64,000 nt of DNA. It comes from Clostridium sp. CAG:302. Its GTDB lineage: Bacteria; Bacillota_I; Bacilli_A; RF39; UBA660. The translations under genes were made by a program, and so were the position numbers. Positions 4,732 through 64,000 of this stretch are shown here, one piece after another. The notes under the pieces are model-generated. The model searched no databases. It saw only the letters and a program-made list of their open reading frames with translations, and was not told the DNA's origin. The DNA is taken from positions 3,087 through 67,086 of the forward strand of contig FR887372.1 in NCBI GenBank assembly GCA_000431795.1. Reading direction: 5' to 3'. Each line of letters opens with the position of its first letter. Position 1 is the stretch's first letter.

Positions 4732-4771
4732 TCCAATATATTTTACAATAGATATTTACAAAATAAACTTT

Positions 4772-4830
4772 CACAATAGAGACCTTAGGCTCTATTGTGC
4801 CTCTTAAGACTTATCTTAAGACTTAAGAGG
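4772..4830. repeat. Double-hairpin palindromic repeat element, copy 1 of 5
   Basis: cacaatagag-accttagg-ctctattgtg followed by cctcttaag-N13-cttaagagg. The same architecture occurs at 27050-27102, 56891-56942, 59776-59829 and 61977-62030. Confidence 0.8.
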
Positions 4831-4841
4831 ATATATAATAA

Positions 4842-26960: not shown

Positions 26961-27049
26961 GTATCTAATATACTATCATAAAAGTTCTAAATAGTAAAGA
27001 AAAAACACCTATATAAATGTTAGTTTTTTTATTAATTATATATAATTAT

Positions 27050-27102
27050 CATAACATAGACCCTAGGCTATGTTATGCCTCTTAAGACCTTGGCTTAAGA
27101 GG
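27050..27102. repeat. Double-hairpin repeat element, copy 2 (downstream of rplQ)
   Basis: cataacatag-accctagg-ctatgttatg followed by cctcttaag-accttgg-cttaagagg. Confidence 0.8.
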
Positions 27103-27145
27103 AAAGAAAAAGAGATACCTAAATTAATAGATATCTCTTTATATA

Positions 27146-56787: not shown

Positions 56788-56890
56788 AGTTCCTCCTTAC
56801 TAAATAATACTAACTAGTAATAACCTATAGAAGATGTTTTCATAGACAAAAAAAGACTTTAATTTTTTATATTCTATAATATAAATGTTT

Positions 56891-56942
56891 AACAATGAAG
56901 ACCTTAGGATTCATTGTTCCTCTTAAGACTACAAACTTAAGA
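56891..56942. repeat. Double-hairpin repeat element, copy 3
   Basis: aacaatgaa-gaccttagg-attcattgtt followed by cctcttaag-actacaaa-cttaagag. Confidence 0.8.
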
Positions 56943-56993
56943 GATAAAAAAAGATAACCAATTATTATAAATATTTATAATAGTTATCCATTT

Positions 56994-57894: not shown

Positions 57895-58533
57895 CTAATT
57901 ATAATTAAAAGCAGTATATACTGCTTTGGGTTTTATTATTCCTTTTATAAAATCTTTATTTCTAGCTAATATCTCTCTAATTTCTCTATACCATTGACCA
58001 TAATAATATCTTAAATCAGCCTCTACTCCATAAGACTCTAAATCTAAATTATCAGATAAAAATAATGCTCTATATAAATGATATCTTTGTGATACTATAA
58101 CTACCTTATTAGATTTATATACATTTTTTACTCTATATATGCTATCATAAGTAGATATACCATAATTATCAGTAATAATATCTTCTTCAGGAATACCATG
58201 TTCTAGCAAATAATTCTTCATAACAGTAACTTCATCATAGTCATCATTCATATGATCACCCGTTATAAGTATTTTGTTAGATATATCATTATTATATAAT
58301 GATATTCCAGTCTTAAGTCTATCCTCAAGCATAGGGCTAGGTTTGCCTCTTCGAATACCCGCCCCTAGAACAACTATATAATCAATATCAGTAAGTAATT
58401 CGCTATTACCACTTACAATCCTATTTTTAGTAGATAATATAACATAAAAATTAATTATTACTGGTACTAATATAATTACTATTAAAACTATTAATATATA
58501 TTTAAATATCTTCTTCATCTTAACACCTAACAT
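57895..58533 (-). CDS. sanA: SanA/YdcF (DUF218) family membrane protein
   Basis: N-terminal transmembrane segment; IVVLGAGIRRGKPSPMLEDRL...ILITGD. Confidence 0.7.
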   Translation of the reverse strand: MLGVKMKKIFKYILIVLIVIILVPVIINFYVILSTKNRIVSGNSELLTDIDYIVVLGAGIRRGKPSPMLEDRLKTGISLYNNDISNKILITGDHMNDDYDEVTVMKNYLLEHGIPEEDIITDNYGISTYDSIYRVKNVYKSNKVVIVSQRYHLYRALFLSDNLDLESYGVEADLRYYYGQWYREIREILARNKDFIKGIIKPKAVYTAFNYN

Positions 58534-58600
58534 AATTTTACCATATTATCATAATATTTAAAATATAAAATAGTGATAAATTTAATTATCACCATTCCAA

Positions 58601-59122
58601 TTATAATTCTATTACTCTTACATCTTCTTTATATTTTTTAATTGAAGTAACTATTTTATTCTTATATTGAATAGGAAACATAAGTTTCATTTTAGAAGTA
58701 TTAAAATTTATATTTATAGAATATTTTCCTATTATTATACTTGATATTTGATCCATTTCCAATTCTATTTTACATTTATTAAATTCATCAGTAATAGTGT
58801 TTTCATTTATAATTAATGTACCACCAACATTACCATCTTTAAAGACTTTATAATTCTTTATAAATAAGATCATATAAGATAAATAAGATACTAAAAAGTA
58901 TATTGATATATATTTTAAAATATTAGTAAAAATAGTAGGTTCTATTCTGTCAACTACAAAAATATAAAATGCAAATACAAATATATATAATATACATTTA
59001 AATATTTGATTAACTATAATTATATTACCAGCCTTTTCTATCTTCTTAAGTCTTTGGCTTATTACAGTTAATTCATTATAATATTTAAATGTTTCCCTTG
59101 ATGCTTCATATTTTATTTTCAT
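58601..59122 (-). CDS. Hypothetical membrane protein (two transmembrane segments plus C-terminal PH-like/YcxB-like domain)
   Basis: The 173-aa product has no clear motif. Confidence 0.4.
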   Translation of the reverse strand: MKIKYEASRETFKYYNELTVISQRLKKIEKAGNIIIVNQIFKCILYIFVFAFYIFVVDRIEPTIFTNILKYISIYFLVSYLSYMILFIKNYKVFKDGNVGGTLIINENTITDEFNKCKIELEMDQISSIIIGKYSININFNTSKMKLMFPIQYKNKIVTSIKKYKEDVRVIEL

Positions 59123-59239
59123 TATTATCTCCCCCTTTCATTAAATTAATGATACATCAAATTATATTTAATATGGTCGCCAGTGCAACGACAAATCATA
59201 TATATTATATTATTTTTTATTGATAGAGTTATAGTTATT

Positions 59240-59743
59240 TTACTTATCTTTTCTTTTTATTCCTTTTAATAGAGTTCCAGTAATACCATTTTCTATAACA
59301 CCTTTTACTGTACCTCTAGTATCAAATCCAAGTACATCATCTACTTTATCAAAAGCATTTTTAACCTTTTTTACGCCACGATCAGACATAGTTGTACCTG
59401 TTACAGCATCAGTAACTTTAGTAACAAATTTTACTGCTTCAATAGCATTATCAAACTTAATAGTAAAGTTATTTTTAATAGTTTGTATGTATACTTCACT
59501 ATTCTTTTGATGAACTTGTACCTTATTATTATATAACTTAATATCACTAATATTTACTATATTAATTACTTTTTTATTTTCTTCTTTCTTTAAAAGACTT
59601 ACTTTTTTAATTTCTACCTTTTCAATTATTATCTTTTTTGAAGTAAGTGTTAATAATAATTTATCTTCTACATCATTATAATATACTTCTGTAGTTAATA
59701 ATATTACTTCATCTTCCGCTAGTTCATAATTTTCCATATTCAT
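59240..59743 (-). CDS. Hypothetical protein, possible bacterial PH-like domain
   Basis: The 167-aa product starts MNMENYELAEDEVILLTTEVYY... Its promoter/RBS/first 5 codons are duplicated upstream of the ATPase gene. Confidence 0.45.
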   Translation of the reverse strand: MNMENYELAEDEVILLTTEVYYNDVEDKLLLTLTSKKIIIEKVEIKKVSLLKKEENKKVINIVNISDIKLYNNKVQVHQKNSEVYIQTIKNNFTIKFDNAIEAVKFVTKVTDAVTGTTMSDRGVKKVKNAFDKVDDVLGFDTRGTVKGVIENGITGTLLKGIKRKDK

Positions 59744-59847
59744 TCCTCCACATATATTATATCACATAAATACTTCATAACATAGACCTTAGGCTATGTT
59801 ATGCCTCTTAAGACTACAGGCTTAAGAGGACATATACAAAAAGCAAT
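59733..59847. repeat. About 115-bp direct repeat, left copy (contains double-hairpin element copy 4, an extended -10 promoter and RBS/ATG)
   Basis: About 93% identical to 61933-62049. Confidence 0.85.
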
Positions 59848-59868
59848 AAATTTATAAAATATTATCAC

Positions 59869-60822
59869 CTAAAATTTATTCTTAAAATCATTCATAAATT
59901 TCTTATATTTATTAAATTCATTATCCTTATTATTTATTTGAAGAACATATAATATTTTTCCATATAGTATATTTATATATTTTTCTTTTTCTATATCTAT
60001 ATTTCTTTTCTTTAAGTGAGATTCCAAACCAAATTTTCTTATATAATATATTTCCTGTCTTATTTCTTTACGATATTTTGCACTAACCTGTACTTTTTCA
60101 TTAACTACTATTCCAGTTACATTTTGATTAGATGATTTATGTATTATATGTATTTTTTTATTATTTAATTCTAATCCTAACTTATATAACATTTTTCTTA
60201 CTTTAACTATAACTTCTCTTGGATTAAATTCTCCTGAAAATGTCATATCATCTGAATATCTTGTATACGATATATTATTTTCTTCACACCATAACCCTAA
60301 TACTTCATCAAACTCTTTCATTACTAAATTTGAAATATATGCAGATGTAGGAGCACCTTGCATTAGATAATCATCATAAGTACATAAATAAGTTAATATC
60401 ATCCCTACTGATTTAGGAAAATATTCTATTGAAAAACAAGAATTGTATACATCTATAAAAGATATATTTTCAAAAAAATCTTTAATATCTAATTTTAAAA
60501 TTAATTCTTTATTTAAATGTGGAATAGCATTATCTTTCAAATTAATACCCTTATGGTATGCTTTTGCATATTTAGATATTGCTTTATTATCAAGAATTTT
60601 TACTAATATTTGCCTTTGAATATGCTTTAAAAGTGAATTTGGTTCATATATCGTTCTATATTTCCCATTTTTCTTTTTTATTTTATATATTTTATAATTG
60701 TTTTCTATATTATTACTAATAGAATAAATGGTATTCAAATATTTCTTTTTATCTTTACAATTAAACAATTTGAGAGATAGTAAAAATTCATTACATTCTT
60801 CTTTACCTATGTATTTCCACAT
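59869..60822 (-). CDS. Retron-type reverse transcriptase
   Basis: RT motifs 1-7: KKKNGKYRTIYEPNSLLKHIQ, LDIKDFFENI, LMQGAPTSAYISNLVM, YTRYSDDMTFSG (cf. Ec86 YTRYADDLTLS), and the retron-specific NQNVTGIVVN (VTG motif). Likely start MWKYIGKEE, with RBS GGGAGG 8 nt upstream. The 5' 69 nt of the track ORF belong to the upstream ncRNA region. Confidence 0.85.
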   Translation of the reverse strand: MWKYIGKEECNEFLLSLKLFNCKDKKKYLNTIYSISNNIENNYKIYKIKKKNGKYRTIYEPNSLLKHIQRQILVKILDNKAISKYAKAYHKGINLKDNAIPHLNKELILKLDIKDFFENISFIDVYNSCFSIEYFPKSVGMILTYLCTYDDYLMQGAPTSAYISNLVMKEFDEVLGLWCEENNISYTRYSDDMTFSGEFNPREVIVKVRKMLYKLGLELNNKKIHIIHKSSNQNVTGIVVNEKVQVSAKYRKEIRQEIYYIRKFGLESHLKKRNIDIEKEKYINILYGKILYVLQINNKDNEFNKYKKFMNDFKNKF

Positions 60823-61012
60823 CTTTACTACCTCCCAACTATTGCAGTGCTCATGATATTGTAATATGGAGATGAACTCAAAGCGTAGCATAGCGAAGCG
60901 ACTACATGAAATGTAGGTAAGTTCATTGAAGTATTACTATTAAATCATCTTAAATAAATTAGTCCCTTAACGACTCGTTAAAGTAGGAAATAATTCCAAT
61001 CACCACTGCCGA
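60823..61012 (-). ncRNA. Candidate retron msr-msd non-coding RNA
   Basis: A locally GC-enriched, highly structured 190 nt sits between an extended -10 promoter and the RT RBS. a1/a2 inverted repeats are GGCAGUGGUGAU (61011-60999) and AUCAUGAGCACUGC (60857-60844). msr-like hairpins are GGAAuuauUUCC and UUAACGaguCGUUAA. A long msd-like stem AUGAACU...AGUUCAU encloses CUACAUuucAUGUAG. Confidence 0.65.
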
Positions 61013-61016
61013 GAAT

Positions 61017-61027
61017 ATTATATCACA
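61017..61027 (-). promoter_or_regulatory. Extended -10 promoter (TGTGATATAAT) for msr-msd/RT
   Basis: Minus-strand TGtGATATAAT lies immediately after the ATPase stop codon. Confidence 0.55.
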
Positions 61028-61033
61028 ATAATT

Positions 61034-61900
61034 TTATTTTTTATCAAATTCTTCTTCATATTGTTTAAAAAAATTATAGTATACTAATACATTAGATAGT
61101 TCTGTCCATTTTTTTGTTACAACAGGTGTATCATCTAAATCATAAATCTTAGCGTCCATTAGTTTTAATAAAAATGGTGAATGTGTTGATATTATAAATT
61201 GACAATTATAAAATCTAGTAGAGTCTTCAATAAACCTTTTTAACTTCAATTGATTTTCCGCAGATAAACTATTTTCTGGTTCATCTAATATATAAATACT
61301 ATCTTCTTTTATCTCTCTTTCCCAAAACATAAGTGCAGATTCACCATTTGACCATTCAATTATATTATTATTACCTAATCTTTCTCTAACAAATTTAGAC
61401 ATTGATTTTCTTTTACTATCATAACTCATTTTTAATTCATCATAATTATCAAAAGAGTTACCATTATTATTAAATTTATAATCTAAATATTCTTTACTTA
61501 ATCTTTCCTTTTGTCTATTAACATTTGCATTAATAGAACGAACATCTATTAAATAATCAAAAACATCATCACTTGTAATTAATTTTATTTCCATTGGTTG
61601 TTCAAAAGACATTTCATAATCACAATGTTCAACATATAAATCAAAATATGAACCTTTATCTATTGGCGACTTCCTTGATGCATTTAATTTTTGTGAAATC
61701 ATATTTATAAGAGTTGTTTTACCAGAACCATTACCACCATAAAATATTGTTATTTTATCAAAATTTATCTCTTTAAATGATTTCGATGAAAATAAATGAA
61801 GTGGATAATTATTATTAAATATGTTTCTTCTCTCTTCATTAAATTCAATATTATGTTCTTGGATTTCATCTAATAATGTAAATTTTTTTAAATAAACCAT
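61034..61900 (-). CDS. ABC/OLD-like AAA ATPase (Walker A GGNGSGKTT, Walker B ILDEPE, H-loop STHSP); candidate retron effector/accessory protein
   Basis: The 288-aa product has the complete minimal ABC-type ATPase motif set. It sits immediately upstream of the msr-msd promoter, with its own TGGTATAAT promoter and RBS AGGAGGTG. Confidence 0.7.
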   Translation of the reverse strand: MVYLKKFTLLDEIQEHNIEFNEERRNIFNNNYPLHLFSSKSFKEINFDKITIFYGGNGSGKTTLINMISQKLNASRKSPIDKGSYFDLYVEHCDYEMSFEQPMEIKLITSDDVFDYLIDVRSINANVNRQKERLSKEYLDYKFNNNGNSFDNYDELKMSYDSKRKSMSKFVRERLGNNNIIEWSNGESALMFWEREIKEDSIYILDEPENSLSAENQLKLKRFIEDSTRFYNCQFIISTHSPFLLKLMDAKIYDLDDTPVVTKKWTELSNVLVYYNFFKQYEEEFDKK

Positions 61901-61932
61901 TTTTCACACCTCCTGATAAATTAAATTTATTC

Positions 61933-62049
61933 TCCATATTCATTTCCTGCACATATATTATACCACATAAATACTTCATAACATAGACCTTAGGCTATGG
62001 TATGCCTCTTAAAACTACAGGCTTAAGAGGATATATACAAAAAGCGATA
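61933..62049. repeat. About 115-bp direct repeat, right copy (contains double-hairpin element copy 5 at 61977-62030)
   Basis: It pairs with 59733-59847. It retains a vestigial MNMEN start codon context, now out of frame with the ATPase gene. Confidence 0.85.
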
Positions 62050-62177
62050 GGACTCTCGACCTATCTACATATAGCATTAATATTATGTATCTTTAAATTT
62101 AAATAATTAATTTTAATAACATTTAAAGTTTGAAAATAAAACTTGACAATTTTGTTACCTAAATGTTACCTAAAAAA

Positions 62178-62708
62178 TTATCTAGTATGTCGTCTTAAAG
62201 TTTCATCACTAGTTATTAATTCTGAAATTGAATTTCTCTGTAATTCTCGTAATTTAGAATAACTCTCTAAAAATTGTTTTTGATCTATTTTTCCTGTATT
62301 TAAAGCATGTAATAAATCTTGATACTTTATTTCCATTAATTCATATAATTTTTTTAACTTTTCTAAATACAAATTATCAATATGTTTTTCAAATTCAGTT
62401 CTAATTGCTTCTCCTTCAAATAAATCAGCTATCATTTCAATAGCAATATCACGTGAAATAATATTAGCTCTATGTATCTTATCAATTTCTTGTATTTTTG
62501 AAAAAGTGCTTTCAGATATCATATCAAATGATTCAGGAATATCATATCTAACTCTAGAATTTACTCCCCTTTGAGCAACAACCTGTTTTACTAAATTTAA
62601 TGTTTTTTTATCATCAATTAAAATAGAATTATTTACAGCATTTATAGATAAATTATTATCAACTACGTTTATTTCCTTAAAATCTTTTTTATTATTTATA
62701 TCAGTCAT
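62178..62708 (-). CDS. Hypothetical protein (176 aa)
   Basis: ORF with no recognisable motif. Confidence 0.4.
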   Translation of the reverse strand: MTDINNKKDFKEINVVDNNLSINAVNNSILIDDKKTLNLVKQVVAQRGVNSRVRYDIPESFDMISESTFSKIQEIDKIHRANIISRDIAIEMIADLFEGEAIRTEFEKHIDNLYLEKLKKLYELMEIKYQDLLHALNTGKIDQKQFLESYSKLRELQRNSISELITSDETLRRHTR

Positions 62709-62755
62709 AAAAGTATTCCTCCTCCGTTATTTATTATAGCATATTTTCGCTTTTT

Positions 62756-63025
62756 TTAAAATAATGGAGATATAAGTTGTGAGTAAACAGTTCTTAAATC
62801 TTCTTCGGCTATTTTTAAATCTCTTAAAATAGAGTATGCAACTTCAATTTTAATATTATGAAAACAAGAATCATCAATAAGTATATTTTTTATTTTTAAT
62901 TGTTTTTTATACTCAATATCATTGCCTTTATAATAATTAATTAGTTTATTGTTTATATTTCTTAACTTATTTAGCATTATGCCTGACTCCTTCCAATATT
63001 CCTGGTACTCTATTACCATCCGCAA
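62756..63025 (-). CDS. Hypothetical protein (89 aa)
   Basis: ORF overlapping the upstream gene end. The start may be the internal Met near 62977. Confidence 0.35.
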   Translation of the reverse strand: MRMVIEYQEYWKESGIMLNKLRNINNKLINYYKGNDIEYKKQLKIKNILIDDSCFHNIKIEVAYSILRDLKIAEEDLRTVYSQLISPLF

Positions 63026-63968
63026 AATATCTAAATTCGCCTATATTAAAACTTTCTTGTAATTGTTGTAATGATATTGGAACCAATCCATTTATTCCTT
63101 CTAAAATATAATATTCATTTTCATTTGGATTATCTTTAATAGATGTCTTGTTAATTGCAAATACTATTATAGGAATTGACTTTTTTTGTTCTTCTAAAAA
63201 TCTTTTACCGATAATTGTAGCAAAGCAATTGTCCTTTAATTCTTTTTCATTAAATATATTTCCTCCTAGTAAGAAAACATCGTTTATAAATTCTAATCCC
63301 AGAAATTCAGATTGCTTTACTTTACTGAAAAATATTGCTATTTTATCTTCAATTTTTACTGGTCTTAAATTGTCCGTTATTTCTATATAATCATCAACTT
63401 CTTTTTCAAAATTATATGGCTTAATTTCTGCCCCGTTTGTTACCATTCCATAAACTTTATTTATAGTTTCTTTAAACTTCTTTTTTTCTTCTTCATCATT
63501 ATGTAAACTTTTAATCTCTTTTAATTCATAATTATGTTTTGCTAGTGATAAATCTCCTACCATAGCATTTATTGAAATACTAAAAATTTGATTATCAACA
63601 TTAACTGCAAAACCAGGATGCCATTTACCATATCTTTGCTCAAAGTATTCTCTTTCATCAACTACTTCAACAGGCGCATCTTCAAATAATTCGGTATCAT
63701 ACACATAAGAATTAATACCTATCATTGATAAAATTTTTCCATAAATTGCAACAAATTCCCAGCACACAACTGAGTTATTCGATTCATTAATATTTGCTAG
63801 ATTATCAATTTTTGTATGATTCGTACTAGACATTTCTTTTTTAGATAAAGCTCTTGTAATATATAGTAAAAATTCATCATCATAGGATAATAATTTACAT
63901 AATTTTATATAAACATATATTGCTTTTTCAAGTTGAGTTATATTCTCTGGAATACTTGAAATTATCAT
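62967..63968 (-). CDS. Hypothetical protein (333 aa)
   Basis: ORF with no recognisable motif. Another minus-strand ORF appears to start beyond the window end. Confidence 0.4.
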   Translation of the reverse strand: MIISSIPENITQLEKAIYVYIKLCKLLSYDDEFLLYITRALSKKEMSSTNHTKIDNLANINESNNSVVCWEFVAIYGKILSMIGINSYVYDTELFEDAPVEVVDEREYFEQRYGKWHPGFAVNVDNQIFSISINAMVGDLSLAKHNYELKEIKSLHNDEEEKKKFKETINKVYGMVTNGAEIKPYNFEKEVDDYIEITDNLRPVKIEDKIAIFFSKVKQSEFLGLEFINDVFLLGGNIFNEKELKDNCFATIIGKRFLEEQKKSIPIIVFAINKTSIKDNPNENEYYILEGINGLVPISLQQLQESFNIGEFRYFADGNRVPGILEGVRHNAK

Positions 63969-64000
63969 TTTTGCAAATTCGTTATTAATGCTTATCGAAT

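Follow-up and report, generated by a model that had tools for sequence, protein, structure and literature searches.

A retron joined to a small ABC-type ATPase in a conserved, approximately 2-kb cassette of gut bacteria

Introduction

Retrons of the Ec107-like group are abundant in host-associated Bacillota and are without a known effector or function. In the Ec107 branch of clade 2, only two of 59 reverse transcriptases (RTs) had an adjacent accessory gene (Mestre et al. 2020, PMC7736814), and in a large species-level metagenome survey the group termed clade2_Ec107like was the second most abundant of all retron groups (n = 192), was 93% Bacillota and 91% host-associated, and was described as having no recurrent accessory modules (Toro 2026, bioRxiv 10.64898/2026.05.14.725207). 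Here, we analysed a stretch of 64,000 nucleotides from Clostridium sp. CAG:302 (GenBank assembly GCA_000431795.1, contig FR887372.1, positions 3,087 to 67,086 of the forward strand; referred to as the window, with position 1 as its first letter), in which a retron RT and its structured non-coding RNA (ncRNA) are preceded by a gene for a 288-aa ABC-type ATPase. An earlier note on this DNA had proposed that these three elements form one cassette, possibly an undescribed retron subtype acting as an anti-phage module.

The locus resembles the clade 2 Ec107-like retrons (Retron-Eco5/Ec107 branch) in its top RT profile match, which spans the full length of the protein, in its compact RT of about 317 aa with an ncRNA directly 5', in its hosts, which are gut Bacillota known from metagenome-assembled genomes (MAGs), and in that most of its relatives consist of RT and ncRNA only. 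Unlike these retrons, the window locus and its sub-lineage have the 288-aa ATPase fixed immediately upstream. The absence of a recurrent accessory gene, by which the lineage has been characterised, was found in 57 of 64 relatives and does not extend to the sub-lineage of the window. We found no description of a stable ATPase-retron cassette in the literature searched; the RT and ncRNA are probably members of a described lineage, of which the ATPase-linked variant is probably undescribed.

Results

Locus layout and the reverse transcriptase

All genes between 56 and 64 kb of the window lie on the minus strand, and the ATPase, the ncRNA and the RT were all present where the earlier note had placed them. 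In 5' to 3' order, the features are as follows.

61900-61034, minus strand: single-domain ABC-type ATPase, 288 aa (Pfam, motifs)
61033-60823, minus strand: gap between the open reading frames (ORFs) of the ATPase and the RT, 211 nt
61025-61017, minus strand: extended -10 promoter of the retron, TGATATAAT, 9 nt after the ATPase stop codon
about 61010-60843, minus strand: retron ncRNA (msr-msd), about 170 nt (covariation, covariance model, fold)
60822-59869, minus strand: retron RT, 317 aa (PADLOC, Pfam RVT_1, motifs)
Whole cassette, minus strand: ATPase, msr-msd ncRNA and RT, about 2.05 kb

The 317-aa protein belongs to the Pfam family RVT_1 and contains both retron-specific regions together with the catalytic YxDD motif: region X (NAxxH) as NAIPH at aa 98-102, YSDD at aa 189-192 inside YTRYSDDMTFSG, and region Y (VTG) at aa 235-237 inside NQNVTGIVVN. 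Its top PADLOC match was RT_Ec107-like (E = 1.7e-130, 432.9 bits, 303 aa, profile positions 2-305 of 307), followed by RT_III-A models (347.4 bits at best) and then by II-A, XI, XII and others; the best 25 of 50 PADLOC matches were exclusively retron RT models. Among NCBIfam models, those for the retron St85, TIR and Ec67 families scored 170-211 bits, compared to 45-54 bits for Drt2 and group II RTs. The proposal that this is a retron RT rather than an RT of a group II intron, a diversity-generating retroelement (DGR) or an abortive infection (Abi) system was thus upheld, with retron profiles far ahead and a covarying ncRNA adjacent. Its further assignment to the Ec86 type held only in part: the retron motifs are present and the nearest solved structure is indeed that of the Ec86 RT (E = 8e-35), but RT_II-A profiles reached 221 bits, well under the 433 bits of RT_Ec107-like. 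Judged by these profile scores (RT_Ec107-like compared to RT_III-A), the RT is assigned to the clade 2 Ec107-like lineage.

Relatives of the RT were collected by a scan of one genome per species, which gave 64 loci with RT identities of 45-98%. All but three of these (61/64) are gut MAGs labelled Bacilli, Tenericutes, Mollicutes, Erysipelotrichaceae or similar, and the three most distant relatives (45-50% identity) come from Lachnospiraceae-type genomes. The RT start codon at 60822 (MWKY), with the Shine-Dalgarno sequence GGGAGG, is kept in all relatives. A mechanically called RT ORF of 340 aa begins 69 nt further 5', at 60891, and reads across the 3' portion of the ncRNA (60823-60891). It was rejected as the RT gene on account of its overlap with the msd and its lack of conservation, whereas the start at 60822 with its Shine-Dalgarno sequence is conserved; since the longer frame opens inside the ncRNA, a 340-aa RT may be annotated automatically, with the msd/a2 region masked as a result.

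The msr-msd RNA and the retron promoter

The same non-coding element lies 5' of the RT in every relative with enough upstream sequence, and in each of these an extended -10 box of the type TGnTATAAT stands a few bases 5' of the ncRNA start. The earlier note had pointed to a structured, G+C-enriched region at this position, and this was borne out by both composition and covariation: the core of the gap between the ORFs has a G+C content of 35%, compared to 21-23% in the ATPase and RT ORFs and a window average of 26%. In an alignment of 61 distinct ncRNA copies, RNAalifold predicted 33 base pairs in seven helices, with compensatory double changes at 15 of the 33 pairs and very few broken cells; standard pairs are formed in 99.1% of 1998 cells. 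In 500 column shuffles of this alignment, the observed values were never reached on any of five measures, and when the 3' partners were slid by 1-3 columns, only 32-52% of cells paired and covariation fell from 0.195 to 0.03-0.05. These results establish the non-coding stretch as a conserved, msr-msd-like structured RNA.

The helices comprise a closing a1/a2 stem, two 5' msr-like hairpins, and a long-range msd-like stem around a further stem and an inner hairpin, and the ncRNA sequence of the window folded singly gave the same architecture. Two compensatory pair types occur in the a1/a2 stem, formed by 61009-61004 (a1) and 60849-60844 (a2), and directly above this stem the nearly invariant G61003 is opposite the invariant G60850. 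Two opposing G residues in retron transcripts were highlighted by Mestre et al. (PMC7736814), and G61003 is the probable, putative branching G.

Searched with a covariance model built from the alignment, the 64-kb window gave a single match (60823-61015, 206.6 bits). In the relatives searched that lay outside the training alignment, the model likewise placed the ncRNA next to the RT, the other 60 relatives being training sequences, and it had no match beside ATPase genes that lack an RT. A weak match (41 bits; L060:5742-5957) was observed 5' of a 45%-identical RT in Mediterraneibacter agrestimuris, which suggests that the same ncRNA architecture extends to more distant, G+C-richer members of the lineage. 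An Rfam scan of positions 58000-64000 at E ≤ 10 returned no retron or other credible family, only matches at chance level; Rfam does not include the published Ec107_like covariance model. The extended -10 box TGATATAAT is kept before the ncRNA in both ATPase-bearing and ATPase-less loci, and no terminator-like site was found between the ATPase and the ncRNA. Since the retron promoter stands right behind the ATPase stop codon and no terminator intervenes, transcription that starts at the ATPase promoter should also continue into the retron.

The ATPase

The ATPase has the features of the ABC-type superfamily, namely Walker A, a Q-loop/signature-like segment, Walker B with its catalytic glutamate, an H-loop and the fold of a nucleotide-binding domain, and its ABC motifs are all invariant across homologues down to 41% identity.

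61738-61712, minus strand: Walker A, GGNGSGKTT
61351-61337, minus strand: signature-like motif, SNGES
61288-61274, minus strand: Walker B, LDEPE
61186-61175, minus strand: H-loop, THSP

Pfam assigned the protein to AAA_15 and AAA_21. Matches to defence ATPases (mad3, PtuA, AriA, AbiLi, GajA and ATPase-Toprim_I-B) were weak and mostly limited to the Walker B/H-loop end, and the curated NCBIfam PtuA model gave 35 bits compared to a cut-off of 500. In the AlphaFold model (pLDDT 78.9), an ABC nucleotide-binding domain is predicted with a helical insertion at aa ~110-175 that is partly of low confidence. Foldseek ranked OLD nuclease, EttA, GajA, the Eco8 effector, Rad50/SMC heads and PtuA at the top, with E values of 1e-7 to 1e-4 and TM-scores of only 0.3-0.43; as modelled, the fold is that of a generic ABC nucleotide-binding domain. 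Neither PADLOC nor Pfam pointed to a nuclease or any other effector domain in the ATPase. The protein is smaller than the PtuA/OLD-type ATPases of retrons, as proposed beforehand, and has no nuclease partner.

The ATPase family is large, comprising 205 clusters at 50% identity (E ≤ 1e-30), nearly all of 280-310 aa, and its named members are annotated merely as 'AAA family ATPase'. Homologues without ncRNA and RT were found at 79% identity to the ATPase of the window (L095), at 72-74% (L097, L099-L102, P0099 and P0115) and at 44% (L109-L120 and Lachnospiraceae P0173 and P0211). The partners of such retron-less ATPases include proteins of 205 aa (L099-L102), 179 aa (L109-L120) and 75 aa (L139-L142), DUF5680 proteins (L135, L136), and a pair of 1229 and 220 aa (L134), while some have nothing obvious beside them. 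For retron-less ATPases of 44-74% identity, the partner genes were observed to be closely spaced with, or to overlap, the ATPase gene. This suggests that the compact ATPase is modular and is used in several two-gene systems.

Linkage of the ATPase and the retron

In ATPase-bearing loci, nucleotide homology between the window and its relatives extends from 61900-61933 to 59861-59894, i.e. from just 5' of the ATPase ribosome-binding site to just 3' of the RT stop codon. Limits of 61915/61933 and 59861/59866, in near-exact agreement with the 61932 and 59848 given in the earlier note, recur in at least 10 unrelated flanking arrangements that have no other flanking gene in common, so that ATPase and retron travel together as the single cassette that had been proposed, and the ATPase-retron junction is homologous across all cassette loci. 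In RT-only loci, homology to the window begins only at the retron promoter (~61025-61076). The cassette is common in human and animal gut metagenomes.

The ATPase was present at 7 of the 64 species-level RT loci (about 11%). Among the recovered loci with an ATPase at least 85% identical to that of the window and with enough downstream sequence, ncRNA or RT follows in every one. One such ATPase, P0061 (85% identical), is indexed in 93 blocks of the collection, and an RVT_1 gene adjoins it in 6 of the 6 places shown. Co-conservation of ATPase and RT, which the earlier note had named as a check, therefore fails as a general tie (57/64 relatives lack the ATPase) but holds within the clade of ATPases at least 85% identical. 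Over 16 distinct cassettes, the protein distances of ATPase and RT were strongly correlated (Mantel r = 0.94, reached in 0 of 5000 permutations). Synonymous divergence was alike for the two genes (0.2-1.4), and both are under purifying selection, with dN/dS values (ratios of nonsynonymous to synonymous divergence) of 0.05-0.10 for the ATPase and 0.14-0.24 for the RT. Based on the shared limits, the co-varying distances, the similar synonymous divergence and the purifying selection, the unit has been inherited for a long time while its surroundings changed. Overall, the locus is a genuine retron joined to a small ATPase in a conserved cassette of about 2 kb, and ATPase, ncRNA and RT have been passed on together, as a unit, in many different genomic settings.

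Several candidate extensions of this picture were rejected. An HD-domain gene found 5' of the ATPase in P0061 loci is not part of the cassette, because L001 and L088 have an unrelated gene at that position. L107, with an ATPase of 53% identity, was considered as a divergent retron-linked ATPase and was rejected as a chimera of two ATPase types at ~1x coverage, in which the L109 type is followed by the type of the window, with the switch near the conserved LDEPENSLS motif; P0129 appears to be a second chimera, with the reverse order of types, switching near residue 115 by the conserved SDDVFDY motif. Both are probably assembly chimeras that would mislead counts of co-occurrence. No ATPase remnants were found 5' of RT-only retrons apart from one deletion (L124, described below), and the similarity at the L002 junction is A-rich and of too low complexity to interpret. 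Carriage by phage or prophage was rejected, as the best identities to GenBank phages were only 42% (RT) and 43% (ATPase); IMG/VR contained a single remote match to the cassette.

Comparison with other retron types

Compared to types I-A, I-B and III-A, the locus lacks the features by which each is defined. Type I-A retrons (Ec78/Eco7) combine an RT with the PtuA ATPase and the HNH protein PtuB. They resemble the window locus in having an ABC/SMC-like ATPase that also exists without retrons and that is similar at the level of the fold; however, their RT belongs to a different clade, and the window ATPase is about half the size (288 compared to ~550 aa), lies upstream instead of downstream, has no HNH partner, and gave only partial PADLOC matches to PtuA, besides falling far below the cut-off of the curated model. 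In type I-B (Eco8), the RT is accompanied by an OLD-family ATPase-TOPRIM protein, and OLD-like folds do top the Foldseek list for the window ATPase (6p74, 9lpa), but with TM-scores of only 0.4. In contrast to the Eco8 effector, the window ATPase has no TOPRIM match, its 288 aa being filled by the ATPase domain, and its PADLOC match to ATPase-Toprim_I-B was weak and partial (E = 1.5e-11).

Type III-A, which has phosphoribosyltransferase (PRTase)-like effectors and is sister to the Ec107 branch, supplied the second-best RT models (347 bits), but neither a PRTase-like nor a winged-helix gene adjoins the window retron according to Pfam, PADLOC and NCBIfam. Ec86 (Eco1, type II-A3) offers the nearest solved RT structure and has the designation 'Nuc_deoxy+Retron', which puts the accessory gene first; unlike Ec86, the window locus has no nucleoside deoxyribosyltransferase (NDT)-like effector, and its RT scored 221 bits with RT_II-A compared to 433 with RT_Ec107-like. 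No known retron effector (PRTase, NDT, HNH, TOPRIM or others) was found in the flanks by PADLOC, Pfam or NCBIfam. The argument that an ATPase-ncRNA-RT order is itself unusual did not stand, since types IX, X and XIII and 'Nuc_deoxy+Retron' are already known to have accessory genes on the upstream side. The suggestion of an undescribed retron subtype has to be narrowed in a similar way: the RT and ncRNA fall in the described clade 2 Ec107-like lineage, but the ATPase-joined sub-lineage may be new.

Flanking repeats and a strain-variable island

The cassette is flanked by two copies of a species-specific repeat of about 120-140 nt, which form a direct repeat, the upstream copy being 93-94% identical to positions 59729-59848.

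62069-61929, minus strand: upstream repeat copy, left edge of the cassette
62065-62046, minus strand: terminator-like hairpin of the upstream copy
62030-62005, minus strand: hairpin 1 of the upstream copy
62004-61977, minus strand: hairpin 2 of the upstream copy
61965-61957, minus strand: extended -10 promoter-like site 5' of the ATPase, TGGTATAAT, read directly from the sequence
59870-59729, minus strand: downstream repeat copy, right edge of the cassette, with hairpins 59829-59804 and 59803-59776 and the promoter of a 167-aa gene (p167)
56868-56975, 27035-27103 and 4770-4837, minus strand: further repeat copies

The five copies in the window (~70-140 nt) are all on the minus strand and each lies 5' of a gene. 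The repeat has an invariant hairpin, CCTCTTAAG-N-CTTAAGAGG, and a second hairpin whose loop, CCTAAGGTCT, is conserved and whose stem covaries (AACATAG/CTATGTT, AATGAA/TTCATT, ATAGAG/CTCTAT); in both cassette-flanking copies, the hairpins are followed by an extended -10 box. The upstream copy also holds the first codons of the p167 gene along with the extended -10 box, and from its sequence it is predicted to supply the ATPase promoter. The 288-aa upstream ATPase had been said to have its own promoter; the promoter-like box TGGTATAAT is legible in the sequence, but a consensus promoter scan did not list this site, and in that scan, promoter-like sites were no commoner than in shuffled sequence. 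Neither of the two repeat copies inside the region scanned with Rfam had a match, and no copy of the repeat was seen in the cassette-bearing loci of other species. Candidate identities for the repeat are a binding site for a regulator, a structured RNA and a small repeat element.

The repeat bounds variable blocks downstream of recG. Three related loci (L081, L082 and L084), whose sequences match the window at 100% identity across the genes that it contains, have the order recG, repeat, Fic-like gene, further genes, p333-p89-p176, repeat, cassette, repeat and p167, with the window ending before the Fic-like gene and recG. In L088 the order is recG, repeat, Fic-like gene, cassette, repeat and p167, whereas L146 has a possible empty site (recG, repeat, p167); this is suggestive but not proof, because it was seen only across a scaffold gap of Ns beside the repeat. 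Since the number of blocks differs among near-identical strains, the cassette lies in a strain-variable island of repeat-bounded blocks.

Two other parts of this island were observed. A repeat-bounded block 5' of the cassette (62178-63968, with ORFs of 333, 89 and 176 aa) is absent from the near-identical strain L088; it had no family matches save a marginal BrxA-like match for the 89-aa ORF (E = 0.0018), and it may be another accessory or defence block of the island. The Fic-like gene that follows recG in related loci encodes 221 aa.

Discussion

We propose, with a probability of roughly 0.45, that in one sub-lineage of Ec107-like retrons a minimal ABC ATPase without a nuclease has been taken on as a dedicated partner, which would constitute a new retron type in which an ATPase guarded by multicopy single-stranded DNA (msDNA) delivers the response. 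The locus would then be a working clade 2 Ec107-like retron that is permanently joined to a compact, nuclease-less ABC-type ATPase. By analogy with established retron biology, the RT would bind the msr hairpins, prime from the 2'-OH of G61003 and copy the msd stem region into multicopy single-stranded DNA of about 80-100 nt. The RT-msDNA complex might bind and restrain an ATPase dimer, probably via the helical insertion, as in Ec78 with PtuA and Eco8 with OLD, and interference with the msDNA by phage might free an ATP-driven activity that halts the growth of infected cells, as in type I retrons. An anti-phage function of the cassette would follow from this scheme. The ATPase fold resembles, by Foldseek, ATPases that retrons use (OLD, the Eco8 effector and PtuA), and the co-opting of an otherwise stand-alone ATPase system by Ec78, as described in one report (PMC12819146), offers a precedent. 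That the ATPase is functionally coupled to the retron at all seems to us an even bet.

A number of findings weigh against a dedicated partnership and favour an ordinary orphan Ec107-like retron, for which ncRNA and RT suffice or an unlinked partner acts, with the ATPase being an independent gene that was co-transferred through adjacency. We regard this as a serious possibility, at somewhat under even odds. The 57 of 64 species-level RT relatives that lack the ATPase also lack any conserved neighbour, as clustering of the flanking ORFs over the 64 RT loci revealed no other recurrent gene, in line with the literature, which reports no recurrent accessory module for the lineage, and the retron's own promoter is present in ATPase-less loci as well. 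For its part, the large ATPase family is mostly solitary or found with unrelated genes, and ATPases 44-79% identical to that of the window occur without a retron, alone or with other partners. In a neighbour-joining tree, the ATPase-linked RTs fall in at least five clusters interspersed with RT-only ones. Retron modules have also been exchanged behind an unchanged ATPase: L090 and L125 are natural recombinants in which an ATPase 98-100% identical to that of the window precedes an L006-type retron, and in L085 the ATPase is identical and the RT 91% identical (RTs of the three recombinants L085, L090 and L125, 79-91%). L125 switches from one type to the other within the conserved 5' (msr) portion of its ncRNA, and L090 crosses over in the same region; since these two come from different assemblies, an assembly artefact is unlikely. 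L124 (4960-5180) carries an ATPase gene with aa 13-203 deleted beside an intact ncRNA and an intact RT (98% identical). Moreover, co-divergence is expected for any two co-transferred genes. The interspersion, the recombinants and L124 fit either modular compatibility or an absence of functional dependence. Mere adjacency, however, has to account for identical limits of the pair in at least 10 contexts with no other flanking gene in common, for the presence of a retron behind every recovered ATPase of the ≥85% clade whose downstream sequence is long enough, and for a linkage maintained until synonymous divergence is nearly saturated, under purifying selection on both genes.

It is improbable, in our estimation, that the ATPase is instead a helper or regulator, which loads, remodels or stabilises the RT-msDNA or senses the trigger, with the growth-arresting activity encoded elsewhere in the genome. 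Such a role would suit a protein with no nuclease or other toxic domain, RT-only relatives that persist without it, and homologues translationally coupled to many small partners, as fits a general-purpose motor or sensor module; yet neither the cassette nor its flanks contain a candidate effector, and sequence data cannot separate a helper from a dedicated, msDNA-guarded ATPase. To our knowledge, no retron uses an ATPase as a helper. Least likely by far is that the RT comes from a group II intron, a DGR or an Abi or defence-associated RT (DRT) system, with the upstream structure arising by chance. The weak secondary matches to Drt2 and group II RT models (45-54 bits) that would speak for this stand against 150-430 bits for retron models, the presence of NAxxH and VTG, and strong ncRNA covariation with a1/a2 and opposing G residues; the profile scores and the covariation have effectively refuted it.

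If the ATPase is a passenger, the locus is merely another member of a known retron lineage. If it is a dedicated partner, the response would be delivered by an msDNA-guarded ATPase instead of a nuclease, NADase or membrane protein, and the cassette could reveal the mode of action, downstream of msDNA, of an ATPase that has no nuclease domain. The recurring, mobile ATPase-retron cassette provides a defined two-protein, one-RNA system for testing defence by Ec107-like retrons, and it would, if the proposal is true, give the first experimental handle on signalling by these orphan retrons.

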